Source: a bacterium (GTDB lineage: Bacteria; Electryoneota; Electryoneia; Electryoneales; Electryoneaceae). From it: a stretch of DNA of 64,000 nt. A model generated the notes under the pieces. That model saw only the letters and a program-made list of their open reading frames with translations, did not search any database and was not told where the DNA came from. Positions within the stretch are counted from its first letter, which is position 1, and each line of letters starts with the position of its first letter. This document shows, piece by piece, positions 1,044 to 39,705 of this stretch. The stretch covers positions 832,001 to 896,000 of the forward strand of contig CAXXKJ010000002.1 in assembly GCA_963675295.2 (NCBI GenBank), written 5' to 3'. Position numbers and translations under genes: made by a program.

Positions 1044-1078
1044 ACTCACCACTCATCACTCATTACTCACAACTGTCT
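1044..1078 (-). repeat. Heptamer array (NNTGAGT)x4 preceded by AGACAGT, just after a stop codon
   Basis: Plus strand reads ACTCACC ACTCATC ACTCATT ACTCACA ACTGTCT. Confidence 0.75.
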
Positions 1079-11893: not shown

Positions 11894-11903
11894 CACAACC
11901 AGC

Positions 11904-11931
11904 TGTGAGCGATGAGCTCTGAGCTGTGAGT
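11904..11931 (+). repeat. Heptamer array (NNTGAGY)x4 after the menA stop
   Basis: TGTGAGC GATGAGC TCTGAGC TGTGAGT. Confidence 0.75.
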
Positions 11932-13811: not shown

Positions 13812-14450
13812 ATGGATATCTGGACCATTGTCCGGGACGCCAGCCTGGTCAACCAACTGCTCCTGGTGCTGCTGATCCTGCTCTCGATTCTGAGTTGGGG
13901 GGTGGTACTCGAACGTTGGCGGTATTTCCGTGTCGCGAAGAAGGCCGACCTCGAATTCTTCGGCGCGCTACGTGGCAGCCTCGACGCGACGCAGGTGCAT
14001 CGCATCGCGGAGGCGAAACGGAAGTCTCCGGCGGGCAAGGTCTACCTCGCGACGGAGCGGGAACTGCAACGGTTGAACAAGCATGACGCGTCGGCGTGGG
14101 CGGAGGTACTCGACATCGAGGGCAACATCCTGCGTGTGGACGGCGAGCGCGGGCTGCCGTTGTTGGCGATTGTCGCCTCGACGGCGCCGTTTGTCGGTCT
14201 GCTCGGCACGGTCTGGGGGGTAATGGTAGCGTTCCTCAAGCTCGGCGGGATGGAGGGCCAGCCGGCGCTGGAGGTGGTCGGGCCGGGCATCGCGGAGGCG
14301 TTGATCGCGACCGCGATGGGTCTGTTCGCCGCGATTCCGGCGGTGGTGGCGTACAACATCTTCTCCGCCGCGCAACGAAATCTGCTGTTGCGGAGTGAAG
14401 AGTTTGGACGCCGGCTGGTGGTGTCGATCCGTTCGGGCGGAGGTTTCTGA
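13812..14450 (+). CDS. tolQ: TolQ/ExbB proton channel protein
   Basis: APFVGLLGTVWG and GIAEALIATAMGLFAAIPA motifs. Confidence 0.9.
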   Translation: MDIWTIVRDASLVNQLLLVLLILLSILSWGVVLERWRYFRVAKKADLEFFGALRGSLDATQVHRIAEAKRKSPAGKVYLATERELQRLNKHDASAWAEVLDIEGNILRVDGERGLPLLAIVASTAPFVGLLGTVWGVMVAFLKLGGMEGQPALEVVGPGIAEALIATAMGLFAAIPAVVAYNIFSAAQRNLLLRSEEFGRRLVVSIRSGGGF

Positions 14451-14878
14451 TGAACCTGCAGGGCAGATCGAAGGAAGGCGACCTGCAGCAGATGCCGGAA
14501 ATCAACGTGGTGCCGTTGATCGACGTGTTCCTTGTGCTGCTGGTGATTTTCATGATCACCGCGCCGGTGATCAAGACGGCGATCGACATGGGTCTGCCGC
14601 AGGCGGAAACCGCGACCGCGGATCCGTCGCAGGGGATCACGGTCAAGATCCTGCAGGACGGTACGGTGTGGATTGATGAGGAACGTGTGTCGTTGCAGGC
14701 GTTCCCGTCGCGGTTCCGGGATATTTACTCGAACACGGGGCCGGGCGGTGATTTTCAGCCGGTGTTTCTCGCGGCGGGTGAGGAGGTGCCGTACGGGACG
14801 GTGGTGACGGTGCTGGATGAACTCCGCCTCGCGGGAGTTGAGGATCTCGGCCTGTTGACGCAGAAGGAAAGTCGGTGA
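14450..14878 (+). CDS. tolR: TolR/ExbD protein
   Basis: EINVVPLIDVFLVLLVIFMITAP. Confidence 0.9.
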   Translation: MNLQGRSKEGDLQQMPEINVVPLIDVFLVLLVIFMITAPVIKTAIDMGLPQAETATADPSQGITVKILQDGTVWIDEERVSLQAFPSRFRDIYSNTGPGGDFQPVFLAAGEEVPYGTVVTVLDELRLAGVEDLGLLTQKESR

Positions 14879-14988
14879 GGAAGTCGAAGGGAAGTCGGAC
14901 AGAAGTACAAAGTCGAAGAGAAGTCGAAAGTCGAACTGAAGTCGAAAGACTAAGGACGAGAGACTAGAGCCCAGAGACGAGAGACGGT
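14879..14988 (+). repeat. Degenerate purine-rich short-repeat tract (AAGTCGA-like, then AGACGAG-like heptamers) between tolR and tolA/tonB
   Basis: Recurring AAGTCG(A) units followed by ...GGACGAG AGACTAG AGCCCAG AGACGAG AGACGG. Confidence 0.6.
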
Positions 14989-14993: not shown

Positions 14994-15818
14994 ATGCGAA
15001 TTCTGAGCGCGACAACTGGTCAAGCCACACCCCGCAGCCACCTGGTATCCTTTGGTGGCCACGTGGTGCTGGTCGCGCTCGCGTTGATTCTGCCGACGCT
15101 CGGTCTGTTACCGGAACCGAAGACCGAGTTCGAGGTGGAGTTTGTCCGTCTCAAGGGTGGCGGTGAGATGCTGCCCGGCTGGGTGAAACCGACCCCGGCG
15201 CCGCCCGACGAATCGCTCGAACCGGACAACAAGCCGTTGGAGCAGCCAAAGCCGGTGGAAGAGAAGCCGAAACCCGCCGAGCCGGAACCGGCAGCGGTTG
15301 AGCAGGAAAAACCGGCCCCCGCGCCGTCGCAACCAGTAGAGGAAAAGCCGAAGCCGCGTGAGGAAACTCCGGCCGCGACGGGCAATGCGTCTCCAGCTGA
15401 AGAAACAACGGAAGAGTCGGTAGCAGACACCGAAACCGGGTCCACCGCTCCCGCGACCGAGGGAGAAACCGGCGCGGGTGTCGGGGCAAAGCCAGGACCG
15501 GAGGGGCCGGGCATGGGCGCGACCAGCGACCTCGAATTCACCGGTGCGAACGCGTATCTGTCTCGTATCGAAGCCGAGGTACAGCGCCGCTTCAACTTCC
15601 GCGGGAAAGCGTCCGGCAAGGTCGCCGAGTACCATTTCACGCTGGACAAGAAGGGCGAGCTGCATGATCTCGTGCTGATGGTCAGCAGTGGCGTGCCGAG
15701 TCTCGATCTCGCGGCACGCAGCGCGTTAACCCGCGCCAACTTTCCGCCGTTGCCGGGCAGTTTCCCCAGTGACCGCCTCGGCATCACCTACAAATTCCAC
15801 GGAGATGGTTCACGATGA
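14994..15818 (+). CDS. TolA/TonB family energy transducer
   Basis: N-terminal TM helix containing His, Pro/Glu/Lys-rich linker, C-terminal SSG..SLDLAA..A...FPPLP domain. Confidence 0.8.
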   Translation: MRILSATTGQATPRSHLVSFGGHVVLVALALILPTLGLLPEPKTEFEVEFVRLKGGGEMLPGWVKPTPAPPDESLEPDNKPLEQPKPVEEKPKPAEPEPAAVEQEKPAPAPSQPVEEKPKPREETPAATGNASPAEETTEESVADTETGSTAPATEGETGAGVGAKPGPEGPGMGATSDLEFTGANAYLSRIEAEVQRRFNFRGKASGKVAEYHFTLDKKGELHDLVLMVSSGVPSLDLAARSALTRANFPPLPGSFPSDRLGITYKFHGDGSR

Positions 15819-17128
15819 AGCCATCGCGATTGCTTCCGCTGTTGCTGCTGCTGGTGTTTGCCGTTTCGAGTTTGTTGACTGGTCCCGTGTTCGCACAGAC
15901 CAGCGAGGATGAGGATGAAACGACCGAGGTCACACTCGAGGCGTTCGGGCAGGGTTACTACCGTCCGGGGTTGATTTACGGCATCCGGTTCGAGCCGGAA
16001 TTGAACGCCGAGCAGCAGATGGCGTCCAAGCTGTTCGATGAACGCCTGCGGTTCGCGTTGGACTGGTCGGGCTATGTCAATTTGCAGCTGACCGACTCGT
16101 TGACCTTCTCCGGCCCGCCGGAAACCGAACAGGCCGAACCGGAAAGCGAATTGCGAGTTGAAATTGCAGCGGATGAAAGCGATCCGGACCTGGTGTACGC
16201 CACGATCATGCTGGCGGAACCGGAGGGGGAGGCGTGGTACACCGGACGGATCGGGTTCAAGCGATCGTACGCCAATGAGTCCGGCGATGCCGCAGCCGAA
16301 ACGATCATCGTGCAGCTGACCGGGATGACGCCGCCGTTCCGTTCGCGGATCGTGTTTGTCGAGTCGAAGGGGAACAACGTCAAGGAACTGATGCTCGCGA
16401 AGTATGACGGGTCAACCAAGCAGCAGTTGACGAACGACGGCTCAATTGCGTTGTCGCCGAGCTGGTCGCCGGACGCGAAGAGTATCGTCTTCTGCAGTTT
16501 CCGAGACAAGGGCGACGCTGACCTTTTCATCGCCGATCTGGCGGGACGCCGGATCCGTCGCCTCGCCCCGCGTGAGGGCACCGACGCCGCGCCGGCATGG
16601 TCGCCGACGGGCCGGGAGATTGTGTTCGCGGGGTCGAACGGTGAGAACACAAACCTGTACATCGTCGACGCGGATGGCCGCAATCTGCGCAAGCTGACCA
16701 CCACCCGCGGGATCGACACCTCGCCGAGCTGGTCGCCGACCGGGCGGGAGATTGTGTTCATGTCCGACCGCAACGGCCACCCGCACATCTACCGCATGGA
16801 CAAGTACGGCTCGAATCTGCGTCGTCTCACCTATGAGGGCAGCTACAATTCCGACCCGGCGTGGTCACCGTCCGGCGACCGGATTGTCTACTGCCGCCGC
16901 ACCGACAACGGCTTCCAGCTGCACTCGATAGACCCGTTGGGCGATGTGGATGTCGCGTTGACCAATGAACCCGGCGATCACCTCGACCCGAGTTGGTCGG
17001 CGGACGGGATGAAGATTACGTACTCGTACCGTGGCCGCATCTGGGTGATGAGCGCCGATGGCACCAACCGGCGGCAGCTGGCGTCCGATGGTCTGCAGCC
17101 CGATTGGTCGCCGATTTTGGAACGATAG
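15815..17128 (+). CDS. tolB: TolB-like protein with PD40 beta-propeller
   Basis: Signal peptide; repeated P.WSP.G..I(V)F blades; position in the tol operon. Confidence 0.85.
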   Translation: MKPSRLLPLLLLLVFAVSSLLTGPVFAQTSEDEDETTEVTLEAFGQGYYRPGLIYGIRFEPELNAEQQMASKLFDERLRFALDWSGYVNLQLTDSLTFSGPPETEQAEPESELRVEIAADESDPDLVYATIMLAEPEGEAWYTGRIGFKRSYANESGDAAAETIIVQLTGMTPPFRSRIVFVESKGNNVKELMLAKYDGSTKQQLTNDGSIALSPSWSPDAKSIVFCSFRDKGDADLFIADLAGRRIRRLAPREGTDAAPAWSPTGREIVFAGSNGENTNLYIVDADGRNLRKLTTTRGIDTSPSWSPTGREIVFMSDRNGHPHIYRMDKYGSNLRRLTYEGSYNSDPAWSPSGDRIVYCRRTDNGFQLHSIDPLGDVDVALTNEPGDHLDPSWSADGMKITYSYRGRIWVMSADGTNRRQLASDGLQPDWSPILER

Positions 17129-17158
17129 TCTATGGTCTATGGTCCATGGTCAATGGTT
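17129..17158 (+). repeat. Left heptamer array (NATGGTY)x4, inverse complement of the right array
   Basis: TC TATGGTC TATGGTC CATGGTC AATGGTT directly after the tolB stop. Confidence 0.85.
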
Positions 17159-17225
17159 ACACAAAACCACAAAACGGCCATAGCCATCTGAATCGGTATC
17201 TGAAGTATATGGGGGAGAATAACTA

Positions 17226-17588
17226 GTGCGTGATCATACAAACTTGACCGCATTTACGTTGGCTGAGGAGTTGGCTATTGCTGTGTATGTTCATACAAGA
17301 GATTTTCCTCGCGAAGAATTGTTTGGGTTAACATCACAAATGAGAAGGGCTGCAGTCTCGGTCGCCTCAAACATCGTTGAAGGTGCAGCCAGATCAAGTC
17401 ATGCGGATTTCCTGCGATTTCTTGACATTGCGTTCGGTTCGGTCCGTGAACTGGAATTTCAGATATCCCTTGCGGCAAAACTCGACTACCTGCAAGAACC
17501 TCGCAGCACCCAATTGTCGGCCTTGGCACAACGTACTTCGAAAGTGTTGCATGGTTTGATCCAGTCTTTGAAAACGAAAAGACCGTGA
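17226..17588 (+). CDS. Four helix bundle protein (23S rRNA IVP / TIGR02436 family, bAvd-like fold)
   Basis: FPREELFGLTSQMRRAAVSVASNIVEG, FLDIAFGS..ELE.Q motifs; 120 aa. Confidence 0.92.
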   Translation: MRDHTNLTAFTLAEELAIAVYVHTRDFPREELFGLTSQMRRAAVSVASNIVEGAARSSHADFLRFLDIAFGSVRELEFQISLAAKLDYLQEPRSTQLSALAQRTSKVLHGLIQSLKTKRP

Positions 17589-17598
17589 ACTCACACCC

Positions 17599-17703
17599 AG
17601 ACCACAGACCACAGACCACAGACCATAGACCATAGACCAAAGACCATAGACCACAGACCATAGACCATAGACCAAAGACCATAGACCACAGACCATCGAC
17701 CAG
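17599..17703 (+). repeat. Right heptamer array (AGACCAH)x14 plus one degenerate unit
   Basis: Counted directly. The last-base pattern C,C,C,T,T,A,T,C,T,T,A,T,C,T shows a 35-bp higher-order duplication. Confidence 0.95.
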
Positions 17704-17826
17704 AGCCCCCATCCTCCGCTCCCGGAGGACAGAACAACTGTCCATGGATCTGGGCAACTGCTGGCGGGATGCGCTCCCTGATCGTACGTTAATCCGTGGA
17801 CTTGAACTGAAACGGGGGTGCCTTCC

Positions 17827-19005
17827 ATGCGACACGCACAGCTTCGAGTAGCAGCAGCCAGTCAATCCGGCCTTCTTCCTTTTGGTTTCCTTTTAGTTCT
17901 TCTGGTGTGTACGGGACTTGCGATGACCGTGCCCGCCTTGGCGCAGCCGACGCAAACCTGGATCTACGCATTTGATGTCTACTATGTGTTTCAGGATATC
18001 TATGACCTTGCGATCACATCGGACGGCAACGTGGTTGCAGTCGGACGTTGGGATGATCGAGCGAGCGCAGTTAAGCTGGACAGCGATACGGGGCAGGTGC
18101 TGTGGGAATACCACACGAACGACAACGATTCGCAGTTGAACTGTGTAAGTTCGGTTGAAGACGGCAGCGGGGATATGCTGATCGGTGGTTGGAAGAATGA
18201 AGATGCTCTTCTAGCCCGGTTGTCAGCACAGGGTGAATTGATCTGGATGCGGCTCTTCAATCCGAGCCCAACGTTGAATCCCGATTGGATCAGTGATATG
18301 CTGATTCATCCGAGCGGTAATATCTATCTCTGCGGTCTTCTGTCCGGACAGAAGACTTATGCTTGGTTACGTGCTGATGATCCCAGCCAACACCAGGTGT
18401 ATCGCAACTTGCCCGTTGTGATACCCCGTGGGCGACGTCTGGAGGTGGCTTCACCATCCTCATTTCTCATTGGGGGTGACATCTGGAGTGGCACAACGTT
18501 ATATGGTGGAGTAGCACAGGTTTCAACATCCGGTGAGGTAGAGTGGATTCACCAGGCACCCGATGTGAACTACACATACGGAGTAGCTCGGACGCAGGAC
18601 GCTATCACTGTGTTTGTGGGTCCGATGAGTGACTTCGGCGAACCCGTACGTGCATTCATACGCGGCCTCGATGGACAGGGCAATCAGGTCTGGGGGCTGG
18701 AACATGGTGTAGGCGATGATAACAGCGTTTACCACGATGTTTGCCCGGCGAATCCAGGAGGTTCCAATGATGTCTATGTCGTAGGGAATCTGTATGAGCA
18801 GAACGGCGGCCCCAGCCGTCAGGTTTTGCGCCGGATTTCGTCATCCGGGGATATCATCTGGACAGTTTACGGCACGGACGGCATCAGCTACCACAACGAG
18901 TGGCGGGTGGTGAAAGCGCTGAATAATGATGGCGTGATTGTCGCGGGTAAACGATTCGTGGCCCACAACGAAGCCGACCTGGTCATCGAACGCTACGATC
19001 CGTGA
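17827..19005 (+). CDS. Secreted predicted beta-propeller protein, paralog 1 of 3; no T9SS tail
   Basis: Signal peptide then AQPTQTW; G..LW blade repeats; ends VIERYDP; start uncertain (17818 or 17827). Confidence 0.8.
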   Translation: MRHAQLRVAAASQSGLLPFGFLLVLLVCTGLAMTVPALAQPTQTWIYAFDVYYVFQDIYDLAITSDGNVVAVGRWDDRASAVKLDSDTGQVLWEYHTNDNDSQLNCVSSVEDGSGDMLIGGWKNEDALLARLSAQGELIWMRLFNPSPTLNPDWISDMLIHPSGNIYLCGLLSGQKTYAWLRADDPSQHQVYRNLPVVIPRGRRLEVASPSSFLIGGDIWSGTTLYGGVAQVSTSGEVEWIHQAPDVNYTYGVARTQDAITVFVGPMSDFGEPVRAFIRGLDGQGNQVWGLEHGVGDDNSVYHDVCPANPGGSNDVYVVGNLYEQNGGPSRQVLRRISSSGDIIWTVYGTDGISYHNEWRVVKALNNDGVIVAGKRFVAHNEADLVIERYDP

Positions 19006-23036: not shown

Positions 23037-24650
23037 CAGACTGCTGACAAACCCCGTCATTTGATGGGGTTTGTTTTGTATTCACACGGCACATCCTACT
23101 GGTTGGATTTGTGGTATAGTTGGCAGGTTGTGTTTGGTTCTTCGCTCGATTTTTCTATCGAGACCGTTGAGCGTGGTGCGCTGGGATAGAAGACCGGCTA
23201 AATAGGTCCATAGTCTTGAGATAGAGGGGTGTTTCGCCATTGTCATGGCGATCTTCTTCATGTTCTGGCAGGCGGCGGACAGCAGGCATTGTTCACGTGC
23301 TCCGGCTATCGAGCGCAGCCGGGCATAGCGATGGCCATACAGTTGTTTGGCTTCGCCGAAGCTGCGTTCGACCGTCTCCCGTCGTCGCCGGTACGTGGCC
23401 CGTCCGCGTTCTGTCCGAGCGGTCGCGATCATCTTTTCACGGCTGGCCTGCCACACGTGCCGGGTGACCACCTTGCGGTGATTGGCGCTTTCGGTGCATT
23501 GCTGCAACAGGGGACAGAGGACACAGCACGACGGGTCGGAAACATATTCCTGGTAGCCTTCACGTGTCGTCGTGCGATACGGTAGTGTCTGGCCGCCGGG
23601 ACAGTGGTAGACATCCCCCAGCGAATCGTACACAAACAGTCGTTTTGCCAGCATTCCCTTCTTGCGTGTCGTACGTACCGAGCCGATCACGCCGTCGATC
23701 TTTCGATCCTCCAGCCCCTTGCAGATGGCGGCGGTATTGTAGCCGGCGTCGAGACCGACCCTTTCCACCGGGAAGTGGAATTTGCGAATCTGTGTGTCGA
23801 GACGCTCGAGGTAGGGGGTGCTGTCATGTACATTGCCGGGGGTGACATGCGTGTCGGTGATGATTCCGGCCTTGTTGTCTACGGTACGGTGGTCAAGGTA
23901 GAAAAAGCCCTGCGGCTTGCCGTCCCGCACCATGAAGCCGCTGTCCGGATCGGTGGTGCTGACCTTGATTTCCTTTGTCGCCGGCGGTGATGAATCGTCA
24001 TTGTCACGTTTCTTCAGTGGCTTTTTGCCATGCGCCAGGCGATCCGCATCCACCGCCTCTTCCAGATCGGACAGATACGACTTCGTCGCCACTGTCACCT
24101 GCCGCTTCTTGAACTTCTTCTTGTTCGCGCTGGCTTTCAGGTGCGTCGAATCGGTGAACAAGACCCGGCCATCGACCAGGCCACGACGGATCGCCAGCAG
24201 CACGATCTCGTCGAAGATCTCCTGGAAGATGGTGCTTTCACGGAAACGGCGGCGTCGATTCTGGCTGATCGTGGACGCGTCCGGCACCTTGTCACGCAGA
24301 TCCAGCCCGAGGAACCAGCGATAGGCAACATTGACCTGGATCTCACGCACCAGCTGACGCTCGGACCGAATTCCGTACAGGTAACCGATGAACAACATCT
24401 TGAACAGAAGGACAGGGTCAACAGCCGGACGGCCATTGTCGGCGCTGTAGAGATGCTTTACACGATCCCGGATAAACGAAAAATCAATTGCCGCATCAAT
24501 CTTCCGCAAAAGATGATCGTCCGGGACCAAATCGTCAATGTAAATAAGCTCCGCTGCGCTTTGATGAGCTTTGGAAGTAGGTAGCATCTACAAAGATACA
24601 AAACAAATCCCCACAGGTCGAGAGCCCGTGGGGACTTTGTCAGCAGTCTG
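23037..24650 (-). mobile_element. IS1182-family insertion sequence, 1614 bp
   Basis: Perfect 15-bp terminal inverted repeats CAGACTGCTGACAAA / TTTGTCAGCAGTCTG, a single transposase gene, and a flanking duplicated hairpin. Confidence 0.92.
23082..24587 (-). CDS. IS1182-family DDE transposase
   Basis: LVPDDHLLRKID, GRPAVDP, SERQL, DSTHLKASAN, STTDPDSG, DAGY and RRETVERSF motifs. Confidence 0.95.
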   Translation of the reverse strand: MLPTSKAHQSAAELIYIDDLVPDDHLLRKIDAAIDFSFIRDRVKHLYSADNGRPAVDPVLLFKMLFIGYLYGIRSERQLVREIQVNVAYRWFLGLDLRDKVPDASTISQNRRRRFRESTIFQEIFDEIVLLAIRRGLVDGRVLFTDSTHLKASANKKKFKKRQVTVATKSYLSDLEEAVDADRLAHGKKPLKKRDNDDSSPPATKEIKVSTTDPDSGFMVRDGKPQGFFYLDHRTVDNKAGIITDTHVTPGNVHDSTPYLERLDTQIRKFHFPVERVGLDAGYNTAAICKGLEDRKIDGVIGSVRTTRKKGMLAKRLFVYDSLGDVYHCPGGQTLPYRTTTREGYQEYVSDPSCCVLCPLLQQCTESANHRKVVTRHVWQASREKMIATARTERGRATYRRRRETVERSFGEAKQLYGHRYARLRSIAGAREQCLLSAACQNMKKIAMTMAKHPSISRLWTYLAGLLSQRTTLNGLDRKIERRTKHNLPTIPQIQPVGCAV

Positions 24651-24701: not shown

Positions 24702-24750
24702 TCTCAAGTCTCAAGTCTCAAGACTCAAGACACAGGACTCAGGACTGTCC
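24702..24750 (-). repeat. Heptamer array (CYTGAGW-like)x6 preceded by GGACAGT, after the S8 protease stop
   Basis: Plus strand reads TCTCAAG x3, ACTCAAG, ACACAGG, ACTCAGG, ACTGTCC. Confidence 0.8.
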
Positions 24751-24752: not shown

Positions 24753-26951
24753 TTACTTCATCAACATCACCTTCTGGACGAGTGCCTGGCCGCCGTTGAA
24801 CTGCGCGCGGACGAGGTACACGCCGCTGGTGAGGTTGGACGCGTCGAACGTCAGGCTGTGCTGCCCACCGGCGAAACGACCATTCGCGAGCGTCGCGACT
24901 TCCTGGCCGAGCGTGTTAAACACCTGCATCCGCAGGTCGCCGGCGTCCGGCAGGGTCACGTTCAGCGTGGTGGTCGGGTTGAACGGGTTCGGGTAGGCGC
25001 TACCCAGCGCGAATTCGCCCGGCATCGTTTCTTCCGCCGTCGCGATTTCCGCTGACTGCTTCAGATCCCAACCGGTCGAGTTCCAGTTGCCTTCGGATTC
25101 AGTGCCGAGGCTGAACTTGAGGAAGGTGAAGGAATCCTGGTCGATGACGGTACCCGGATACTGGCCGGCCTTGGCGACATAAAGGTATTCACCTTCCGGC
25201 GCGAAGGGCGGAACGTTCTGGTGCACGCCAGTCACGACGATGTCAACACCCGGCTGGAAGTTGACGTTGTAAACGTCCAGCGGATACGTGTTGCCGTTCG
25301 GCAGGATCGCTTCGGTCCAGACCTGGCCCGGTGTCGCGGTGGTGTAGTTGTTGCGGATTTCGGCGTCAAAGATCAGCGTGCCGCCGTTCTGCAGGATTAC
25401 GTACGGCTCGTACAGCGGATCGAGGTTGACGATCACATCGGTCGTCGTCGCTTCCGCCATCAAGACGGCTTGGTACGCGTCAACACGGCCCGCGCCGAAC
25501 ACGTTATCCTTGCCGTTGGAACCGAGATCCAGCGCCGTCGTCTGCAGGATTTCGTCGATCTCTTCCGGGGTCAGGTTCGGGTTGACGCAACGGATCAGGG
25601 CGATGGTCCCGGCCGCGCACGGGGCCGCCATCGACGTACCGGACTTAACGGTGTAGCCGGTGTTGCTGGAGTAGCTGCAGGAGTTAATGCTTTCACCCGG
25701 TGCGGACACGTCCGGCTTGATCAGGCCCTGATTCTGGCCGTTGTTGTAGATGTAGTCAAACCACGGGCTGATGTCTTCCCATGTGACCGGGCCCTGGCTG
25801 GAGTAGGACGAAATGTTGTCGCTGCTGTTGGTCGAGCCGACAGCGATCAGGCCACCTGTTCCGCCCGGTTCAGTCTGGTCGGGATTGTGCCATGGTGAGG
25901 GCACTTTGCCCGGAGATGTAACCTGTCCCGGGGGCGGAGTGCCGCCACCGCCATTACCAGCGGATTTGGTCGAAGTCAGACCGGCGAGCAGTGCCGCGCC
26001 GTAGGCGTCACGGTTGCCCTGGCGCAAGGTTTCGGACGGGTTTCCCCAGCCGAAGCTCATGGTGGTGTGATTGGCACCGTGTTCAATCGCGAAGTCAAGA
26101 CCGGCCCAGCAGTCACTCAGGTCAGCGCTGCCGAAATCGCTCGAGATTTTGACGCACATGATGGTCGCATCCGGCGCGACACCGGCCTGTGTGCCGGCGG
26201 TGCCGTCACTGGCGACGATACCCGCAACGTGGGTTCCGTGACCGTGCGAGTCAATCGGGTCATTGTCGTTGCTGTAGACGTCATATCCGTGGTTCGGGAA
26301 CTGCGCGCCGCCATCCCACAGGTGGTCTGCGAGATCCAGGTGGTGGTAGTTCACGCCGGTGTCCATCACCGCGACGATGATGCCTTCACCGGTATAGCCC
26401 AGGTCCCACGCATCCGGGGCGTTCACCTGGTTCACATGCCATTCAATTTCATCAGTCTGGTTGCCGCCGGGGGTGCCAACTTCTTCGACCGGTTCGATGG
26501 CCGGCACATCCGGCGAGTATTCAATCGCGTTGACGTCGGAACGCTCAGCGAGGCGACGGATCACGGCCGGGGTCAGCTTGGCGGAAATCGCGTTGGCGAC
26601 GACGATCGAACGAATGTTTTCAGCAGTGCCGAGTTGCTCGTCGGCGTACAATTCGCCGAGCACGGCGTCCTGCGAGTCGGCGGCGCGGCTGCTGATTTCA
26701 TCCCACAGGATAGCGCGGCGCTGTTCCATGCTGCGCACACCTTCGACATACATTGCCAATTCCTGCAGGTCCGGACGCGGGTTCATCATGATTACGACCT
26801 CGAGCAGCTCCGCTTCGTCAGCGGCTGCCAGCACGGGGACGAGATGTTCGCCATACACGGACGGAGCAGAGCTCGCGAACGCGGACGGCAGCAGAAACGC
26901 CGCCAATAACATGACAGCGAGGGGGAGACGGAAAATGCGGAAATTCATCAC
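24753..26951 (-). CDS. S8 serine protease with propeptide, Ig-like domain and T9SS tail (copy A)
   Basis: VAVMDTG, HGTHVAG and SGTSMA catalytic triad; C-terminal YPNPFNPTT...SGVYLV. Confidence 0.93.
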   Translation of the reverse strand: MMNFRIFRLPLAVMLLAAFLLPSAFASSAPSVYGEHLVPVLAAADEAELLEVVIMMNPRPDLQELAMYVEGVRSMEQRRAILWDEISSRAADSQDAVLGELYADEQLGTAENIRSIVVANAISAKLTPAVIRRLAERSDVNAIEYSPDVPAIEPVEEVGTPGGNQTDEIEWHVNQVNAPDAWDLGYTGEGIIVAVMDTGVNYHHLDLADHLWDGGAQFPNHGYDVYSNDNDPIDSHGHGTHVAGIVASDGTAGTQAGVAPDATIMCVKISSDFGSADLSDCWAGLDFAIEHGANHTTMSFGWGNPSETLRQGNRDAYGAALLAGLTSTKSAGNGGGGTPPPGQVTSPGKVPSPWHNPDQTEPGGTGGLIAVGSTNSSDNISSYSSQGPVTWEDISPWFDYIYNNGQNQGLIKPDVSAPGESINSCSYSSNTGYTVKSGTSMAAPCAAGTIALIRCVNPNLTPEEIDEILQTTALDLGSNGKDNVFGAGRVDAYQAVLMAEATTTDVIVNLDPLYEPYVILQNGGTLIFDAEIRNNYTTATPGQVWTEAILPNGNTYPLDVYNVNFQPGVDIVVTGVHQNVPPFAPEGEYLYVAKAGQYPGTVIDQDSFTFLKFSLGTESEGNWNSTGWDLKQSAEIATAEETMPGEFALGSAYPNPFNPTTTLNVTLPDAGDLRMQVFNTLGQEVATLANGRFAGGQHSLTFDASNLTSGVYLVRAQFNGGQALVQKVMLMK

Positions 26952-27226: not shown

Positions 27227-28912
27227 ATGAAAAAGCTGCCTGCAATTTCCGCCTTCCTTTTGCTGTTCGCAGCATCATCCCGCGCACAACTACCCTTTGA
27301 GTGGGAACTGGATCTTTCTTCTATTGGCAGCGCATCAGTTTCCAACATCCACATGTCCGGCGACTGCAGCATCGTTCTTGTCGGCGAGGCATATCATGAG
27401 AGTGGCGATCCGTCAGACGACTGGCTAATGGTAGTTCGATGCGCCCCTGATGGATCGGGATACGAATTACATCAGCTTGTTCGAAATGTAGGGGGACACT
27501 TCGGAGGGATGGATGATGATGGAAATCTGTACATTTTCTACGAACACAGGAACGACGTTGATCGCAGAATGAAGCTGAATCCGGCAAACGACATCGAATG
27601 GGATTACGAAAGCTCAATCAATGTCAATTACTACGAAGCTGTTGCCCCCAGACCACTACCTGATGGTGATATGCTGTACCTCAATGCGTACGAAGGGTAT
27701 TACGATGACGGGTCCTGTGAAGCATTGCGAATAAATCCAGAAGGCGAGGTGGTCGATTCCGTCTGGATGGAGCTGAATTCCGGGATCAAAGCGTGGGAAT
27801 TCGCTTACGACGGATTTGTGTATGCGCACGGCAGTAATCACTACGGCGGTGCCAATGATGTGTACCTGTTCAATCCGCTGACAACGGAGATTTCCTGGCA
27901 CTGCAGCATCAACGGTGTAAGTGGTGAGGCGGAAGTGCTGTCTGCGATTCACGACGGCAGTGGAATCATGGTCGCGGGCAACTCCCCTGATGGGTATATG
28001 TTCCTTGCCTCCGTCCGGCAGAATGGGTCCCTGTTCTGGGTGTATACGTTTCCCGCGTTTACTGCCAGTGGCCTGTTCTGCACGCAGCATTACACTGCGA
28101 TCCTGTTCAGCAGCTCGGGCGGGTCGATGGTACGTTACGGCAGCTTCCTGATGGGTGGGCAGTTGGACTGGTTCATGCCGCTCAACGGGATGTCGGAATC
28201 GCTCGTTGCGGTGGCGCAATCCCCAGATGAAGGCTATGTAATCGCTGTCCGCCGCGACTACTTGTTGCACCTGTACAAGCTGGCTGGTGTTAAGGTAACG
28301 GTGGCGAACATAGCGCTGGATCCTCCAGACGATACGAACGACGGCGTGCTCACGTTGGACCTGCTCATCGAAACCGGCGAAGTCCGTGACCATAACGTGG
28401 AAGTGCGGTTGCAGGCGGAACATGTGCCGAGCGGCGAGTTATTGCCCGCGGATTCGCTGGTCGTCTCGCTGACGCGAAATGATGAATTGCCATACACCAT
28501 GTATTACACTCTTCCCGCGGGCTCGCAGGACGGGGACTACAAGCTGCTGATCGACCTGCAATCCCTTGATGGCCGATATTCAAAGCAGAGCACCTCGGAT
28601 TTTAACCTCGGCGCAACTGCGGTAGCTGAATCAAATCCGACTGCGAACTCGTTCACCCTGTTTGACGTGTATCCCAACCCGTTCAATTCATCGACCATGA
28701 TCACGTTGAAATTGAAGCATTCCACTCGGCTTGCGGTGAAGCTGTTCAACGTCAACGGTCAGGTCGTGCGCAACCTGCAAGACGCGCAGCAGACGGTTGT
28801 GGGAGTGCATCGTATCGAGCTGGACGGCTCACAACTGCCGTCCGGGATCTACTTCGCGGTCGTGAGTGACGACCGAACGATTCAGGCGCACAAATTGATC
28901 CTGCTGCGTTAA
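27227..28912 (+). CDS. Secreted predicted beta-propeller protein with Ig-like domain and T9SS tail
   Basis: Signal peptide then AQLPFEW; C-terminal YPNPFNSST...LPSGIYF...KLILLR. Confidence 0.82.
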   Translation: MKKLPAISAFLLLFAASSRAQLPFEWELDLSSIGSASVSNIHMSGDCSIVLVGEAYHESGDPSDDWLMVVRCAPDGSGYELHQLVRNVGGHFGGMDDDGNLYIFYEHRNDVDRRMKLNPANDIEWDYESSINVNYYEAVAPRPLPDGDMLYLNAYEGYYDDGSCEALRINPEGEVVDSVWMELNSGIKAWEFAYDGFVYAHGSNHYGGANDVYLFNPLTTEISWHCSINGVSGEAEVLSAIHDGSGIMVAGNSPDGYMFLASVRQNGSLFWVYTFPAFTASGLFCTQHYTAILFSSSGGSMVRYGSFLMGGQLDWFMPLNGMSESLVAVAQSPDEGYVIAVRRDYLLHLYKLAGVKVTVANIALDPPDDTNDGVLTLDLLIETGEVRDHNVEVRLQAEHVPSGELLPADSLVVSLTRNDELPYTMYYTLPAGSQDGDYKLLIDLQSLDGRYSKQSTSDFNLGATAVAESNPTANSFTLFDVYPNPFNSSTMITLKLKHSTRLAVKLFNVNGQVVRNLQDAQQTVVGVHRIELDGSQLPSGIYFAVVSDDRTIQAHKLILLR

Positions 28913-29355: not shown

Positions 29356-31548
29356 CTATTTCATCAGGATCACCTTCTGAACGAGGGGGTGGCCGCCGTT
29401 GAACTGCGCGCGGACGAGGTACACGCAGCTGGTGAGGTTGGACGCATCGAACGTCAGGCTGTGCCGCCCACCGGCGAAGCGGCCGTTCGCGAGCGTCGCG
29501 ACTTCCTGGCCGAGCGTGTTGTACACCCGCATCCGCAGATCGCCGGCATCCGGCAGGGTCACGTTCAGCGTGGTGGTCGGGTTGAACGGGTTCGGGTAGG
29601 CGCTACCCAGCGCGAACTCACCCGGGATCGTAGAATCCACCGTCGCGATTTCCGCTGACTGCGTCAGATTCCAACCGGTCGAACTCCAGTCACCTTCAGC
29701 GTCCGCACCGAGGCTGAACTTGAGGAAGACGAAGGAATCCTGGTCGATGATGTTGTTCGGATACTGGCCGGCCTTGGCGATGTAGAGGTATTCACCTTCC
29801 GGCGCGAAGGGCGGGACGTTCTGGTGCACACCGGTCACGACGATATCGACACCCGGCTGGAAGGTGACATTGTAGACATCCAGCGGATAGGTGTTGCCAT
29901 TCGGCAGGATCGCTTCGGTCCAGATCTGGCCCGGAGTCGAGGCTGTATAGGTGTTGCGGATTTCGGCGTCAAAGATCAACGTGCCACCGTTCTGCAGAAC
30001 CACGAACGGTTCATAGAGTGGATCGAGGAGGACGAGAACATCGCTGAGCATCGATTCCGCAATCAATGCGGCCTGGTACGCGTCCACACGACCGGCGCCA
30101 TACACGTTGTCCTTGCCAGTCGCGCCGAGGTCGACGGCGGTCGTCTGCAGGATTACATCTACCTCTTCCGGGGTCAGGTTCGGGTTGATAGAACGGATCA
30201 AGGCGACCGTACCACCCGCGCACGGGGTCGCCATCGATGTGCCTGACTTTACCGTGTAGCCAGTGTTGCTCAGCGAGCACGAGTTGACATTTTCACCCGG
30301 TGCGGTCACATCCGGCTTCAGCAGGCCCTGGTTGGCACCGCCGTTGTAGATGTAGTCATACCACGGGTCGATGCTTTCCCACGTCACCGGACCGTGGCTG
30401 GAGAAAGCCGAAATGTTGTCGCTGCTGTTTGTCGAGCCGACGACGGTCAACCCGCCTGTGCCGCCATCTTCGATCTGGTCGGGATGACGCCACGGGGATG
30501 GAACCCAACCCGGTGCGGAAATCTGCTCTGGCGGGACGTTGAAGCTGGATCCACCGGAGTTTCCAGCCGCCTTGGTGTTGGTCACGCCCGCAAGATGCGC
30601 CATTTCGTACGTGTCGCGGTTGCCCTGGTGCAGGGTTGCGGAAACGTTATACCAACCCGCGCTGATCGTTGTGTGATGCGCTCCATGCGCCACTGACCAG
30701 TCAATACCGGCCCAGAGATCGCTGAGGTCCGCGGCGCCGTCGTCGTTCAAGACCTTGACGCACATGATTGTCGCATCCGGGGCGACACCGGCCTGTGTTC
30801 CGGCAGTACCATCACTGGCGACGATACCGGCAACGTGCGTGCCGTGACCGCGGACGTCCATCGGGTCAAGGTCGTCGTAATAGACGTCATAGCCGTGGTT
30901 CGGGAAGTCCGGGCCGCCGTCCCATAAGTGGTCAGCGAGGTCGACGTGGTTGTAGTTGACGCCGGTGTCCATGACGGCAACGATCACGCCTTCACCGGTG
31001 TAGCCCATGTCCCACACGTCGGGGGCGTTCACCTGGAGCACATGCCATTCGATTTCGTCGGTCTGGTTTCCGCCCGGGGTGCCCGAGGATTCCACTGGTT
31101 CGAGGCACGGCACATCCGGAGAATACTCGATCACATGGATTTCCGGACGGTCGGCGATACGCTGGATCACGGCCGGAGTCAGCTTCGCGGAAATCGCGTT
31201 TGTGAGCACGATCGAACGGATCCGTTCGGCGTGTCCAAGTTGTTCATCGGCATACAGTTCATCGAGGAGGGCGTTTTGAGAATCCGCTGCGCGCTGGCTC
31301 AGTTCCGCATACAGCAGCGAGCGGCGCTGTTCCATGCTGCGCACGCCTTCCAGGTACTGTGTCATTTCCTGAACGTCCGGACGTGGATTCATTAGGATCA
31401 CGACTTCAAGCAGTTCTGTATCGTCAGCAGCGTCAAGGACCGGCACGAGATGTTCACCGTACACAGTCGGAGCTGCGTTCGCGGTCTGAAACAGGAATCC
31501 AACCATCAACAACATGGCCATGAATGGGATGGAACGATGATTCTTCAC
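29356..31548 (-). CDS. S8 serine protease with propeptide, Ig-like domain and T9SS tail (copy B)
   Basis: Same catalytic triad as copy A and colinear with it; the tail has SCVY instead of SGVY. Confidence 0.92.
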   Translation of the reverse strand: MKNHRSIPFMAMLLMVGFLFQTANAAPTVYGEHLVPVLDAADDTELLEVVILMNPRPDVQEMTQYLEGVRSMEQRRSLLYAELSQRAADSQNALLDELYADEQLGHAERIRSIVLTNAISAKLTPAVIQRIADRPEIHVIEYSPDVPCLEPVESSGTPGGNQTDEIEWHVLQVNAPDVWDMGYTGEGVIVAVMDTGVNYNHVDLADHLWDGGPDFPNHGYDVYYDDLDPMDVRGHGTHVAGIVASDGTAGTQAGVAPDATIMCVKVLNDDGAADLSDLWAGIDWSVAHGAHHTTISAGWYNVSATLHQGNRDTYEMAHLAGVTNTKAAGNSGGSSFNVPPEQISAPGWVPSPWRHPDQIEDGGTGGLTVVGSTNSSDNISAFSSHGPVTWESIDPWYDYIYNGGANQGLLKPDVTAPGENVNSCSLSNTGYTVKSGTSMATPCAGGTVALIRSINPNLTPEEVDVILQTTAVDLGATGKDNVYGAGRVDAYQAALIAESMLSDVLVLLDPLYEPFVVLQNGGTLIFDAEIRNTYTASTPGQIWTEAILPNGNTYPLDVYNVTFQPGVDIVVTGVHQNVPPFAPEGEYLYIAKAGQYPNNIIDQDSFVFLKFSLGADAEGDWSSTGWNLTQSAEIATVDSTIPGEFALGSAYPNPFNPTTTLNVTLPDAGDLRMRVYNTLGQEVATLANGRFAGGRHSLTFDASNLTSCVYLVRAQFNGGHPLVQKVILMK

Positions 31549-31802: not shown

Positions 31803-32972
31803 ATGCCGTACCACGCCCTTGACTATTACCGTCTCGACGAACTGCTCACCGAGGAAGAGCGGATGATCCGTGACGCGGTCCGCAGCTGGGTCAGCGACCG
31901 TGTCATCCCGAAGATCGACGAAGCCTTCCGGGATCATTTCTTCCCGCAGGAATGGATCCCCGAGATGGCCGAGCTCGGCCTGTTCGGGCCGACGTTGCCG
32001 GAAGAATATGGCGGCGCGGGAATCGGCGATATCGCGTACGGTCTCGCGATGCAGGAGCTGGAACGTGGCGACTCCGGCGTGCGCAGCTTCGCGTCGGTGC
32101 AGAGCGCGCTGGTGATGTATCCGATTTACACGTGGGGCAGCGAAGAGCAGAAGCGCGATTTGTTGCCGAAGCTGGCACGGGCCGAACTGATCGGCGCGTT
32201 CGGGTTGACCGAACCGGACGCCGGCTCCGATCCCGGTTCGATGCTGACCACCGCGACCAAGGTTGATGGCGGCTATCGTCTCAGCGGCGCGAAGATGTGG
32301 ATCACGAACAGCACCATCGCGGACATTCTGGTGGTCTGGGCGAAGTTGGACGGCGTCGTCAACGGCTTCCTCGTCGAAAAGGGCGCGGACGGGTTGACCT
32401 GCCCGGAAACAAAGGGCAAGTGGAGCCTGCGGGCGAGTGTGACCGGTGAGATCGTGATGCAGGATGTGTTCGTGCCGGAAGAGATGCGTATGCCGGACGC
32501 GATCGGCCTCAAGTGCCCGTTGATGTGCCTCAATCAGGCGCGGTACGGGATCACGTGGGGCGTGCTCGGCGCGGCGCAGGCGTGTTTCGACAGCGCGCTG
32601 CAATACGCATTGAGCCGTCCCCAGTGGGGCAAGCCGATCGCCGGGTTCCAGGCAGTGCAGGAGAAGCTGGTGCACATGGCGACCGAGATCACCAAGGGCC
32701 AGCTGCTGTGTTACCGTCTCGGCCAGATGAAGCAGAACGGCACCAGCTCGTTCCGTCAGGTCTCAATGGCGAAGGGGAACAACTGCCGCGTGGCGTTGGA
32801 GATCGCCCGCGTCGCGCGTGACATCCACGGCGCGAACGGCATCACCGACGAATACCCGATCATGCGTCACATGATGAATCTGGAGAGCGTGTACACGTAC
32901 GAGGGCACCGACACGATGCACACGCTGATCGTCGGCTCCGACCTGACCGGACTGGAGGCGTATAAGGGGTAG
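31803..32972 (+). CDS. Acyl-CoA dehydrogenase, glutaryl-CoA dehydrogenase-like
   Basis: ELERGDSGVRS, FGLTEPDAGSDP, KMWITN, ARYGI.WG and TYEGT motifs. Confidence 0.9.
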   Translation: MPYHALDYYRLDELLTEEERMIRDAVRSWVSDRVIPKIDEAFRDHFFPQEWIPEMAELGLFGPTLPEEYGGAGIGDIAYGLAMQELERGDSGVRSFASVQSALVMYPIYTWGSEEQKRDLLPKLARAELIGAFGLTEPDAGSDPGSMLTTATKVDGGYRLSGAKMWITNSTIADILVVWAKLDGVVNGFLVEKGADGLTCPETKGKWSLRASVTGEIVMQDVFVPEEMRMPDAIGLKCPLMCLNQARYGITWGVLGAAQACFDSALQYALSRPQWGKPIAGFQAVQEKLVHMATEITKGQLLCYRLGQMKQNGTSSFRQVSMAKGNNCRVALEIARVARDIHGANGITDEYPIMRHMMNLESVYTYEGTDTMHTLIVGSDLTGLEAYKG

Positions 32973-32977: not shown

Positions 32978-33005
32978 CTGCGGACTACGGTCTGCGGTCT
33001 GCGAT
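32978..33005 (+). repeat. Short heptamer array (CTRCGGW-like)x4 after the stop codon
   Basis: CTGCGGA CTACGGT CTGCGGT CTGCGAT. Confidence 0.55.
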
Positions 33006-33008
33006 GGA

Positions 33009-33099
33009 ACAGAATCTTGCCCGTGTTGGTTTGTCCAATGCGGGTCATCCGAACCTTAAGCGGCATGGCGAATTGTTTTCGTCGTGCCGTTTTGTTTTG
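33009..33099 (+). repeat. About 90-bp structured intergenic element, copy 1 (two hairpins, the second terminator-like)
   Basis: Repeats at 34841-34931; core TCATCCGAACCTTAAGCGGCATGGCGAATTGTTTTCGTCGTGCCGTTTT is identical. Confidence 0.85.
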
Positions 33100-33156
33100 T
33101 CGGGAAATCGGAAATGCTTATCTTCTACTCAAATCGGATTGGATGTGGAGTCCCAA

Positions 33157-34827
33157 ATGAAGCGTATGTTGTTTTCCTCATGGATCGTTCTAACCATTTT
33201 GAGTTCAACTATCCTTGCTCAACCACCTTCTGTGGTTTGGGATCAAACTCTTCCGGCAGGTGGGGAAGCGAGCACGGTTCCCATCGAAGTCGTGACCTAC
33301 GGTGATGGAAGCTTTCGTCTTGTGGCCAGTCATTATGCCATGTGGGACGGATCTGCGATGCTGTACAAGCTCGCGGCGGACGGTTCCATTTTCGGAGTGC
33401 AGACCTATACAGGGTATTATGGCCATCAAACCCATTCGTTGGACGGACGCGTTGATCTCGGAGTGTTGTTGGTAACGTCGGTGCATGAAGAGTACAACGA
33501 AGGTCCAAATGACATTGTTACTGTGCGCCGTCTGGAAGAAAACACGATGGAAGACACATGGAACGGGTTAGGTTGTGCTGCACGATTTGATGAGTCGGGC
33601 GAAAACTATTACGTAGCACGTGGATACAAAGATAGCCATTTCGTTCCCGCTGACATCGGGATCTACCAGTATTCATCGAGTGACAACAGCGTTGTCCGTT
33701 CCCACGGCTACTCGGAAGTTGGCTATCCTAAGGATCTGGCTGTTCTAAGCGAAACTCGGATTTTCCTCGCTGAGCGAAACACCGTTGCCAGTATCGACCT
33801 GGTGAATGACGGCCATGTCCGTTGGACATATCCGATGGATGAGATTAAACGGGTGCATGCCACACCCGACAGCGGTTGTGTCGTATTCAACACCAACCGG
33901 ATTGATCGCCTGACGCGGTCTGGGCAGATGGTCTGGAGTTTTACTACACCTGTCTGGCACTTGAAGGATGTTGCCATTCAACCGACCGGCGCTGTCCTGT
34001 TTACTGGTAACAGCCCAGGGTATGGCGACGGTCTCGATTCACTGCTGGTTGGGGAACTCTCTTCGGATGGAACGCTGCTTTGGAATTGGCTCTCGCCGGA
34101 ACACCAATCCGGTATGGCAATCTCAGCAACGGAGGATGGTGGTTGTGTGATCGGGTACCTCTATGATCAATTCCCGTTTGATGGCCTCGCCGCTCTGCGT
34201 TTGCAGGGGAGGATTCAGTTAACCGCTACGCTCGAAGAACCGGTTTTCCTGCCTGCGGAAGGTGGAGAATTACACCTGGACGTAGAAGTGGAAGCCCGCA
34301 ATATCTCAGGCGCTCAGGGAACGTTTGTGCTGCAAGGCAAAAGCGCAGCGGCGGATCTGCCTGAATTGGAGCTTGAGGGACTAATCCATTCGGGAACGAA
34401 TATGTTTGAGGATGTTGTGTATCCGGTGCCAGAGGGGTATCCTTCTGGCCACTACCAGCTGGTTTCAACACTGAAGGTCAGCGGTTGGCAAACCAGCGAT
34501 TCCTCAGACTTTTACCTCGGAACGTCTGGTGTGGATGTTGAGTTACGCGCAATTGCGCCAGTCCAATTCCTGTTGCAACCCGTCTACCCCAACCCCTTCA
34601 ACTCCACGACGACAATCTCCTTCGACCTGAACCGCCCGACACCGGTCAACCTGTCCGTCTTCGACCTGCTCGGACGGGAGGTGACGGTGCTGAGTGACGG
34701 CCAGCCGTACGCGCCGGGATCGCACCGTGTGGTGTGGGACGCGTCCGGCCTGCCCGGCGGGACGTATTTCCTCCGCGCCCAGACCGATGACGAGCAGCAG
34801 GTGAGACGGATGCTGTTTCTGAAGTAA
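33157..34827 (+). CDS. Secreted predicted beta-propeller protein with Ig-like domain and T9SS tail
   Basis: ATG 33157 after GGAG; signal peptide then AQPPSVVW; C-terminal YPNPFNSTT...LPGGTYFL. Confidence 0.83.
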   Translation: MKRMLFSSWIVLTILSSTILAQPPSVVWDQTLPAGGEASTVPIEVVTYGDGSFRLVASHYAMWDGSAMLYKLAADGSIFGVQTYTGYYGHQTHSLDGRVDLGVLLVTSVHEEYNEGPNDIVTVRRLEENTMEDTWNGLGCAARFDESGENYYVARGYKDSHFVPADIGIYQYSSSDNSVVRSHGYSEVGYPKDLAVLSETRIFLAERNTVASIDLVNDGHVRWTYPMDEIKRVHATPDSGCVVFNTNRIDRLTRSGQMVWSFTTPVWHLKDVAIQPTGAVLFTGNSPGYGDGLDSLLVGELSSDGTLLWNWLSPEHQSGMAISATEDGGCVIGYLYDQFPFDGLAALRLQGRIQLTATLEEPVFLPAEGGELHLDVEVEARNISGAQGTFVLQGKSAAADLPELELEGLIHSGTNMFEDVVYPVPEGYPSGHYQLVSTLKVSGWQTSDSSDFYLGTSGVDVELRAIAPVQFLLQPVYPNPFNSTTTISFDLNRPTPVNLSVFDLLGREVTVLSDGQPYAPGSHRVVWDASGLPGGTYFLRAQTDDEQQVRRMLFLK

Positions 34828-34840
34828 GGAGTAAGGACAA

Positions 34841-39696: not shown

Positions 39697-39705
39697 GAAG
39701 AAAAG

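Follow-up and report, generated by a model that had tools for sequence, protein, structure and literature searches.

How does a small gene for a four-helix-bundle protein come to lie at the end of a row of tol genes, enclosed by two tandem heptamer arrays that are reverse complements of each other? The question is raised by positions 17123-17702 of a 64,000-nucleotide (nt) stretch of bacterial DNA (hereafter, the window), in which a member of the protein family PF05635 is encoded downstream of tolB. The reading put forward here is that this region is a selfish cassette of the intervening sequence (IVS) type, seated in an operon spacer, whose two arrays act as arms that pair as an RNA stem; we put its probability at about one half. 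That the cassette has an IVS-like architecture and belongs to a recurrent, transferable kind of unit is well supported by comparison of sequences from many phyla. The mechanism of RNA processing, with a predicted cleavage by RNase III, is plausible by analogy. A role of the arms at the level of DNA competes strongly with this mechanism, and both could hold at once.

Anatomy of the cassette downstream of tolB

Two heptamer arrays had been described at this locus in a first-pass annotation, one at the tolB stop and one 10 nt past the stop codon of the small gene, and both were confirmed by Tandem Repeats Finder (TRF). The formulas of that annotation, (NATGGTY)x4 and (AGACCAH)x14, describe the same arrays in another register; the copy counts have to be revised, to 4.3 and 14.9 (Table 1). 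The last base of the TAG stop of tolB (17126-17128) is also the first base of the left array, and the complementarity of this arm reaches 5 nt further outward, into the end of tolB (CGATA). The left arm has its reverse complement in the right arm, in which the variant units AGACCAC and AGACCAA occur; since the right arm is over three times longer, several pairing registers are available. Three of them pair 30 nt at 90% (inverted pairs I7-I9), inclusion of the 5 nt of tolB gives 35 nt at 86% (inverted pair I4), and eight registers reach at least 83%. The sliding-register stem of about 28 bp that had been proposed is thus matched by a potential for pairing over about 30 nt.

The locus stands out within the window. 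The 10 longest of the 29 inverted pairs in a whole-window scan all fall on it, and the double unit AGACCATAGACCAT, with at most two mismatches, occurs 17 times in the window, always within the two arrays. Shuffled sequences contained it 0.35 times on average, and none of 100 shuffles reached 17. Among periods 4 to 12, self-matching runs were found in the window at period 7 alone. The long-range stem between the arms is present in both the minimum-energy and the centroid fold (z = -3.0), and none of 20 shuffles folds as well. No Rfam family matched positions 16800-18000 at E values up to 1, and none, those of ribosomal RNA (rRNA) included, reached its gathering threshold anywhere in the window.

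The insertion left TolB untruncated, as its C-terminus (...DWSPILER) is a natural end that matches those of relatives (...DWSPILNR or ...DWSPILE); tolB is host context and lies outside the cassette. The closest named TolB relative comes from the Calditrichota. Translation of the four-helix gene could start from a Shine-Dalgarno-like GGGGGAG at 17211-17217, which is located 8 nt 5' of the GTG start and outside the paired arm. No sigma-70-like promoter was found in 16900-18000 by a scan that is blind to other promoter types, and no terminator-like site was found on the + strand between tolB and the four-helix gene. The small hairpin 3' of the right arm is not among the sites listed by the terminator scan. 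The lack of a promoter-like or terminator-like site before the gene, together with the stem in both folds, favours a cassette that would serve as a substrate of RNase III.

What does the gene encode? Its assignment to PF05635/TIGR02436, made at first sight, was upheld by both profiles, with E 1.8e-31 and 108.9 bits for PF05635 (cut-off 33.8; residues 6-110 on profile positions 2-106 of 106) and 110.9 bits for TIGR02436 (cut-off 24). The protein also matches the Protein Data Bank entries 2gsc (XCC0516, E 4.4e-21) and 2rld (E 3.3e-6), both deposited with five chains, and its N-terminus reads MRDHTNL where the family consensus is MRDHTKL. A family motif, GxxRxxxSxxxNxxE, is given in a passage of PMC3936711. 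In the window protein R41-x3-S45-x3-N49-x2-E52 is present, in columns that are invariant in an alignment of 28 sequences, and Q38, not G, stands three residues before R41. A profile made from this alignment found no further PF05635 member in the six-frame translation of the window. The family is very large (4,149 matches at E 0.001 or better in one search alone), and the protein is under strong purifying selection, with dN/dS of 0.01-0.13 in eight pairs of relatives. In three pairs, the 50 nt upstream of the gene are 86-94% identical, with synonymous sites differing by 30-47%. No match to PADLOC was obtained at E up to 0.01 for the gene and its two downstream neighbours, and the phage collection gave no protein match.

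A function as the Avd component of a diversity-generating retroelement (DGR) was considered and rejected. The match to the bAvd profile PF22296 is weak (E 4.3e-5, 24.4 bits, below the cut-off of 40), as is that to DivGenRetAVD NF033474 (27.8 bits, below the cut-off of 80). None of the 37 open reading frames (ORFs) scanned against NCBIfam, several of which have no match of any kind, matched a reverse-transcriptase family, and no pair of template and variable repeats is present.

Table 1. Positions of the cassette, its host genes and other features of the window.
Feature	Position	Strand	Description
Left arm	17123-17157	+	(GTCTATG)x4.3 at 17128-17157 (TRF: period 7, 91% matches)
Leader	17158-17225	+	68 nt from left arm to start codon, read from the sequence
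Four-helix-bundle gene (PF05635/TIGR02436)	17226-17588	+	120 codons, GTG start, TGA stop
Right arm	17599-17702	+	(AGACCAT)x14.9 (TRF: period 7, 89% matches, score 152)
Hairpin	17712-17729	+	7 bp, just 3' of right arm, without U-tract; in minimum-energy and centroid folds
tolQ	13812-14450		First gene of the tolQ-tolR-tolA-tolB row
tolR	14450-14878		tol row
tolA-like	14994-15818		tol row
tolB	15815-17128	+	Last recognisable gene of the tol row; TIGR02800 propeller_TolB, E 9e-82, and PD40 repeats
Period-7 array	1044-1069		Unit ACTCATC
Period-7 array	11901-11930		Unit AGCTGTG
Composite array	14865-14986		GAAGTCG-type units (TRF periods 7, 11, 18, 29), then (GACGAGA)x4.6; fills the tolR-tolA spacer
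Period-7 array	24703-24746	-	Unit CTCAAGA
Period-7 array	32978-33003		Unit CTGCGGT
Period-7 array	34823-34837		Unit AGTAAGG
Period-7 array	49939-49968	+	Unit AGTCYTG
Period-7 array	59237-59258		Unit TCGCGCC
Subtilisin-like protease gene	24753-26951	-	Paralogue of 29356-31548
Subtilisin-like protease gene	29356-31548	-	Paralogue of 24753-26951

Inverted arrays around related genes

Are such arms peculiar to this genome? The proposal that the flanks of other family members be inspected for inverted period-7 arrays was followed up in a genome scan, with an alignment of the window protein and 27 homologues as the query. The best 80 of 585 confirmed matches gave 77 loci (designated by L and a number), at 55-69% identity. 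They come mostly from Planctomycetota, and also from Verrucomicrobiota, Hydrogenedentota, Desulfobacterota, Nitrospira, Chloroflexota, Acidobacteriota, Actinomycetota, Deinococcota and Bacteroidota. An array of period 7, 14 or 21 with a TRF score of at least 30 was found within 250 nt upstream of the gene in 55 of the 77 loci, downstream in 46 and on both sides in 34. Period-7 arrays crowd around the gene: their density is 6.1 per kb over the 100 nt upstream and 6.0 per kb over the 100 nt downstream, as against 0.2 per kb at distances above 1 kb. When TRF was run more sensitively (score of at least 24, unit of exactly 7 or 8 nt, within 260 nt), 74 of the 77 loci were seen to have an array, and 51 to have one on either side.

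The orientation of the arrays is as telling as their presence. An inverted pair spans the gene in 41 loci, 36 of them among the 65 loci with both flanks available, and a direct pair alone was seen, at the sensitive setting, in only two. Of 168 control ORFs of at least 90 amino acids from the same loci, only 5 are spanned by an inverted pair (Fisher p = 3e-19); two of the five are PF05635 paralogs and a third overlaps a PF05635 ORF on the other strand. The same rule was applied to plasmids. A tblastn search of a plasmid collection gave 26 records, mostly from Nostocales, and in 12 plasmid relatives (cyanobacterial and Gemmatirosa; 33-43% identity) an inverted pair was found 11 times. The twelfth, L086, has a long array of period 14/21 upstream and its complement downstream. 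Period 8 occurs in the plasmid loci L084 and L085 and in a few genome loci, so that 7 is the norm and not a fixed value. When inverted array pairs were searched blindly, 93 were found, 50 of which span a known gene of the family, and 5 of 10 ORFs tested inside other inverted pairs proved to be PF05635 members.

The arms were also shown to covary. Clean unit-7 arrays flank the gene on both sides in 29 loci, among which 18 unit types were counted; the nearest arms, up to rotation, are exact reverse complements in 14 loci and differ by one mismatch in eight, by two in three and by three in four. Pairings of arms across loci fall within one mismatch in 31% of cases, and none of 10,000 permutations reached the observed fit. 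A Hydrogenedentes genome with two copies illustrates this (L035, TAGGCTG/CCTACAG; L057, AGGCTTT/AGCCTAA), each unit being found with its own complement, and L067 has two different arrays per side in mirrored order. This test of unit complementarity was used in place of duplex energies. For 200-nt flanks, the median duplex energy was -128.7 kcal/mol in real pairs and -108.2 kcal/mol in cross-locus pairs (p = 1.7e-7), and only 13 of 67 real pairs did better than the 5th percentile of cross-locus pairs, a low number because many loci have similar units.

The geometry of the stem is rather constant. Local alignment of the flanks gave a stem score of at least 30 in 56 of 78 loci, in which the paired arm has a median length of 32 nt (interquartile range 27-35, maximum 94), and in 37 of these 56 the right arm begins no more than 20 nt past the stop codon. 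Of 52 inverted pairs, 43 have the arm with more purines on the upstream side of the gene (p = 2e-6), a bias that links the arms to the direction in which the gene is read.

Two independent pairs of loci show that the arms travel with the gene, since sequences from different genomes can be aligned no further than the outer borders of the arms. L053 and L061, each from a member of the Verrucomicrobiota, match at 92% between -41 and +29 and cannot be aligned beyond, and the 83% identity between L041 (Desulfobacterales) and L072 (Nitrospira) is confined to -51 to +35/+50. The first-pass annotation had taken the window locus for a candidate IVS-like cassette, and this view gains strongly from the inverted arrays that bracket relatives in many phyla, from their covarying units and from homology that stops at the arms. 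A separate observation concerns L017 (Trueperaceae) and L021 (Anaerosomatales), which share 94.7% identity over 1104 nt, 600 nt of flank included; this could be the recent transfer of a larger segment or an error of binning.

Where do cassettes insert? They were found in very tight spacers, often inside operons. In cyanobacterial plasmids they occupy the cas6-cas4 spacer (L080, L086) and the cas10-cmr3 spacer (L084), and L078 lies between ribonucleotide reductase genes on the opposite strand. Among 55 loci with close ORFs on both sides, the cassette is co-directional with both neighbours in 21 and antisense to both in 12, and it lies between convergent neighbours in 16 and between divergent ones in six. 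In tRNA clusters of Pirellulaceae and of one Saprospiraceae contig it is antisense to the tRNAs in 10 of 10 loci scanned.

Two side observations were made at these sites. Large tRNA clusters (L023, L024, L028, L047 and L074), with up to 19 tRNAs in 6.3 kb, contain heptamer arrays of alternating orientation between the tRNA genes as well as PF05635 genes antisense to them, and consecutive arrays could enclose single tRNAs in stems of the precursor RNA. In addition, 19 of the 43 inverted pairs that do not span a known gene are gene-less, with gaps of 7-99 nt. Examples with 14-38 nt between the arms were found at L085 435-515 (on the Gemmatirosa plasmid), L017 464-553 and L073 2769-2870; one such pair reads (GAGGGCAG)x4.4 and (CTGCCCTC)x4. 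Pairs of this kind, which are located near a PF05635 gene or elsewhere in a locus, could be empty hairpins.

Possible processing of RNA or movement of DNA

How might the arms act? According to the preferred reading, the cassette would be transcribed together with tolB, and the left arm would pair with any of several registers of the right arm, so that a stem of about 30 bp closes a loop containing the entire ORF. By analogy with the 28-bp stem of the Coxiella 23S rRNA IVS, RNase III would then cut the stem between the arms. Such cleavage could free the cassette RNA from the host message, determine how much of the protein is made and reduce the damage to the host transcript. Replication slippage would alter the copy numbers of the units, and tandem repetition would ensure that some register still pairs. 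The complementarity of the arms may be kept by selection for pairing or by template switching between them. The most speculative step is that the protein, as a pentamer, binds the repeat arms.

Several observations weigh against this reading. The antisense strand of the cassette folds equally well. Mismatches of the G.U type number 57 that would pair in the sense strand and 75 that would do so in the antisense strand only (42 stems, p = 0.14), and without a sense bias the mark that selection classically leaves on an RNA helix of the sense strand is absent. Both neighbours run in the same direction in 33 loci; in 12 of these the cassette is antisense to them, so that, as in the tRNA clusters, the host message cannot always carry it. 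The window itself has arms in the minority orientation, nearly balanced, with purines at 3/7 positions upstream and 4/7 downstream. The inverted-pair rule fails in 29 of the 65 loci with both flanks, some of which (for example L020, L030, L040 and L060) have degenerate arms visible by eye, those of L020 having been missed by TRF. At L007 and L080 both flanks carry direct arrays, and a complement lies further out, the gene being inside one arm of a larger inverted pair. The paralogs L010 and L018, in one genome, share the ORF alone (93%), and their arms differ and are oppositely oriented. Masking of translation is not the general purpose of the stem: this role was tried and rejected, because only 14 of 56 loci have an SD-like (Shine-Dalgarno-like) tetramer within the paired left arm or abutting it, and in the window it is located outside the arm.

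The strongest rival explanation, less probable in our view and still a serious one, places the function of the arms in DNA. They would be the terminal inverted repeats of a non-autonomous mobile cassette, or would form its hairpin or cruciform, with the RNA stem as a by-product, and the cassette would depend for its movement on a recombinase encoded at another place or on recombination within arrays. The end of homology at the arm edges and the lack of strand bias in wobble-type mismatches are as expected from such an element, and so are the patchy spread over phyla at about 60-70% protein identity everywhere and the occupation of tight operon spacers (cas6/cas4, cas10/cmr3, ribonucleotide reductase, tRNA) in either orientation. 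The gene-less inverted pairs could be empty sites or landing sites. The most direct sign comes from two loci, L041 (2949-3403, on a Desulfobacterales contig) and L077 (2957-3395, on a Nitrospira contig), in which the cassette is nested in perfect 14-nt terminal inverted repeats, GTAACTACTCAGGT, that lie outside the arrays and are themselves flanked by 8-bp direct duplications, TATTTTAA and GTTACTTG; L072 has the left terminal repeat only. This is a signature of transposition, confined to that subgroup, and the repeat and duplication may belong to a different element that hosts a nested cassette. The terminal repeat is absent from the window (one match with three mismatches, against 2.14 expected) and from 86 of 89 loci. 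No target-site duplication was detected in 72 of 78 loci, including the window, where there is no flanking direct repeat of at least 4 nt. Flanking repeats of 4-5 nt in four more loci are at the level of random-offset controls (about 8%), and 8-bp duplications are limited to the two loci above (2/78). A transposon, or an element resembling a miniature inverted-repeat transposable element (MITE), was therefore rejected for the window, which has the inverted arms and no duplication. The cassette encodes no recombinase, the arm unit and length vary by locus in a way that a sequence-specific transposase would not tolerate, and the purine-rich arm upstream of the gene is left unexplained by a symmetric role in DNA.

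A bolder and rather unlikely proposal is that PF05635 genes and their arms form a large, unrecognised class of hairpin-borne mobile cassettes, whose pentameric protein binds the arms and helps to make or move them. If true, landing in hairpin tips or in existing arrays would explain the origin of the ORF-bearing intervening sequences of rRNA, the presence of the family within operons, at cas loci and among clustered tRNA genes, and some of the heptamer excess that has long been noted for a number of bacterial genomes.

It is slightly less likely again that heptamer arrays are a general intergenic feature that the four-helix protein binds or maintains, its own arrays being operator-like and autoregulatory. 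This idea draws on the analogy of repetitive extragenic palindromes (REP) and their associated transposases (RAYT). Period-7 arrays are indeed about eight-fold enriched in the window (11 rows with a TRF score of at least 30, against a mean of 1.3 in 20 dinucleotide shuffles), and all the others occupy short spacers, directly behind a stop codon or ahead of a start codon. Some array was found within 260 nt of 46 of the 168 control ORFs, arrays alternate between tRNA genes at L074 and L023, and the family is related, by the weak Pfam match, to bAvd, which binds nucleic acids. Heptamers are in excess in Xanthomonas and Nostoc, with 70-75 convergent GGGAATC pairs in Xanthomonas, according to passages of PMC4692102. 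Against a single sequence-specific binder stands the diversity of units within the window (ACTCATC, AGCTGTG, GACGAGA, AGTCYTG, CTGCGGT and ATGGTCT). The AGACCAT unit is confined to the cassette within the window, and array density drops about 30-fold within 250 nt of the gene. The suggestion that orphan arrays in the window are targets or remnants of the cassette finds no support: AGACCAT occurs nowhere else in it, the units of the other arrays differ, and none of these has an inverted partner nearby.

That the arrays are independent products of slippage, complementary by chance, or an artefact of assembly has a probability close to nil: short tandem repeats do arise easily and other heptamer arrays are present in the window, but the excess of double units over shuffles, the rank of this inverted repeat as the strongest of the window, the same bracket in complete genomes and plasmids of many phyla and the outcome of the permutations all speak against it.

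Other arrays of the window have neighbours of their own. One array nearly fills the spacer between the genes at 31803-32972 and 33004-34827. The arrays at 24703-24746 and 49939-49968, 25 kb apart, belong to one unit family, AGTCYTG, when read in the sense of the preceding gene (24753-26951 on the - strand and 46440-49934 on the + strand, each ending just before its array), and are thus copies of one kind and not a complementary pair. An IS1182-family transposase gene (23082-24587, - strand, E 5e-143) adjoins the first of these arrays; it is flanked by a terminator-like hairpin and by one of the two paralogous subtilisin-like protease genes. Large secreted proteins with C-terminal sorting domains of type IX secretion are encoded at 27227-28912, 37163-49934 and 60029-63973, and a PorU-type sortase (E 1.6e-212) accompanies these cargo genes. 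Taken with the resemblance of TolB to that of Calditrichota, this cluster assigns the window to the FCB group of bacteria. Two near-tandem duplications of 15 nt, at 39776-39804 and 42779-42808, have the common end ...CATGATCA, and each lies at most about 125 nt downstream of the start of a gene for a large secreted protein.

Relation to known elements and significance

The closest known relatives of the cassette are the IVS elements with an S23p ORF that interrupt 23S rRNA genes in Coxiella, Leptospira and others, and that have in common with it a PF05635 protein and an ORF looped out by complementary termini. In Coxiella, the 23S rRNA IVS has been shown to encode the same protein family, to have a 28-bp stem of terminal repeats that is cut by RNase III in vitro, and to contain two or three tandem GACAGAT heptamers, in strain-variable number, before the S23p ORF (PMC4990558, in the passages that concern the IVS). 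The stem of the window is of similar length, its heptamers also precede the ORF, and its complementary borders can form a stable enclosing stem (30-35 nt at 86-90%, in both folds). An IVS is inserted in a helix of 23S or 16S rRNA, whereas the cassette occupies a spacer of the tol operon, with tolB on one side and a protein-coding gene on the other. Its arms differ as well, being long tandem arrays of unequal copy number. The Coxiella ORF is reported, in the same passages, to be decaying, whereas the cassette protein is under purifying selection in relatives.

Heptamer repeats have been described in several bacteria. The heptanucleotide repeats of heterocystous cyanobacteria are named short tandemly repeated repetitive (STRR) sequences. 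Arrays of GGGAATC in Xanthomonas, TAACTGA in Beggiatoaceae and GGGACCG in Geobacter, and others in Nostoc, are reported in passages of PMC4692102, PMC4679880 and PMC2700814, and heptamers are the most over-represented long repeats in Xanthomonas and Nostoc according to the first of these. Such repeats resemble the arrays of the window in their 7-nt unit, their intergenic position near start or stop codons, their variable copy number and, in Xanthomonas, their convergent pairs. The arrays of the window differ from them as a matched inverted pair around one gene family, with a unit that varies by locus. The passages of these three papers that deal with the repeats make no mention of an S23p or four-helix gene.

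The REP/RAYT systems and miniature inverted-repeat elements also have a small gene or segment within hairpin-capable inverted repeats in intergenic positions. A REP/RAYT-type system was nevertheless rejected for the window, since the protein is a four-helix bundle of PF05635 and not a Y1 transposase, the AGACCAT double unit is found only at the cassette and is not dispersed in the 64 kb, and no target-site duplication flanks it. With bAvd the protein shares a distantly related four-helix-bundle fold, and the solved relatives of the window protein were deposited with five chains; it differs from bAvd in scoring below both profile cut-offs and in the lack of a reverse-transcriptase match and of template and variable repeats.

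Members of the family have been noted inside cas loci (in a passage of PMC3936711 and a figure legend of PMC10910872) and in rRNA insertions of candidate phyla radiation (CPR) bacteria (in a passage of 10.1101/2024.02.27.582315). The reported association with CRISPR-Cas loci may reflect insertion into operon spacers and not a common function. Heptamers beside such an ORF are mentioned, in the literature searched, only in the Coxiella paper, for one ORF and in the passages cited (PMC4990558). A family-wide link to flanking inverted arrays was not found in a literature search that left subscription journals, family descriptions and supplements uncovered, and a prior mention is possible.

What does the finding mean for the family? 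PF05635 is large, with solved structures, and its members have been seen in rRNA genes, in cas loci and near DGR research without a known function. A near-constant signature of inverted, fast-evolving repeat arms of about 30 nt turns the "selfish IVS ORF" into a defined element that can be tested for pairing of the arms, cleavage by RNase III, binding of the protein to the repeat, and mobility. It also brings a caution, as the presence of such a gene inside a cas or tol-pal operon need not mean a functional link. Finally, it gives a concrete starting point for explaining the over-representation of 7-nt tandem repeats in some bacteria.

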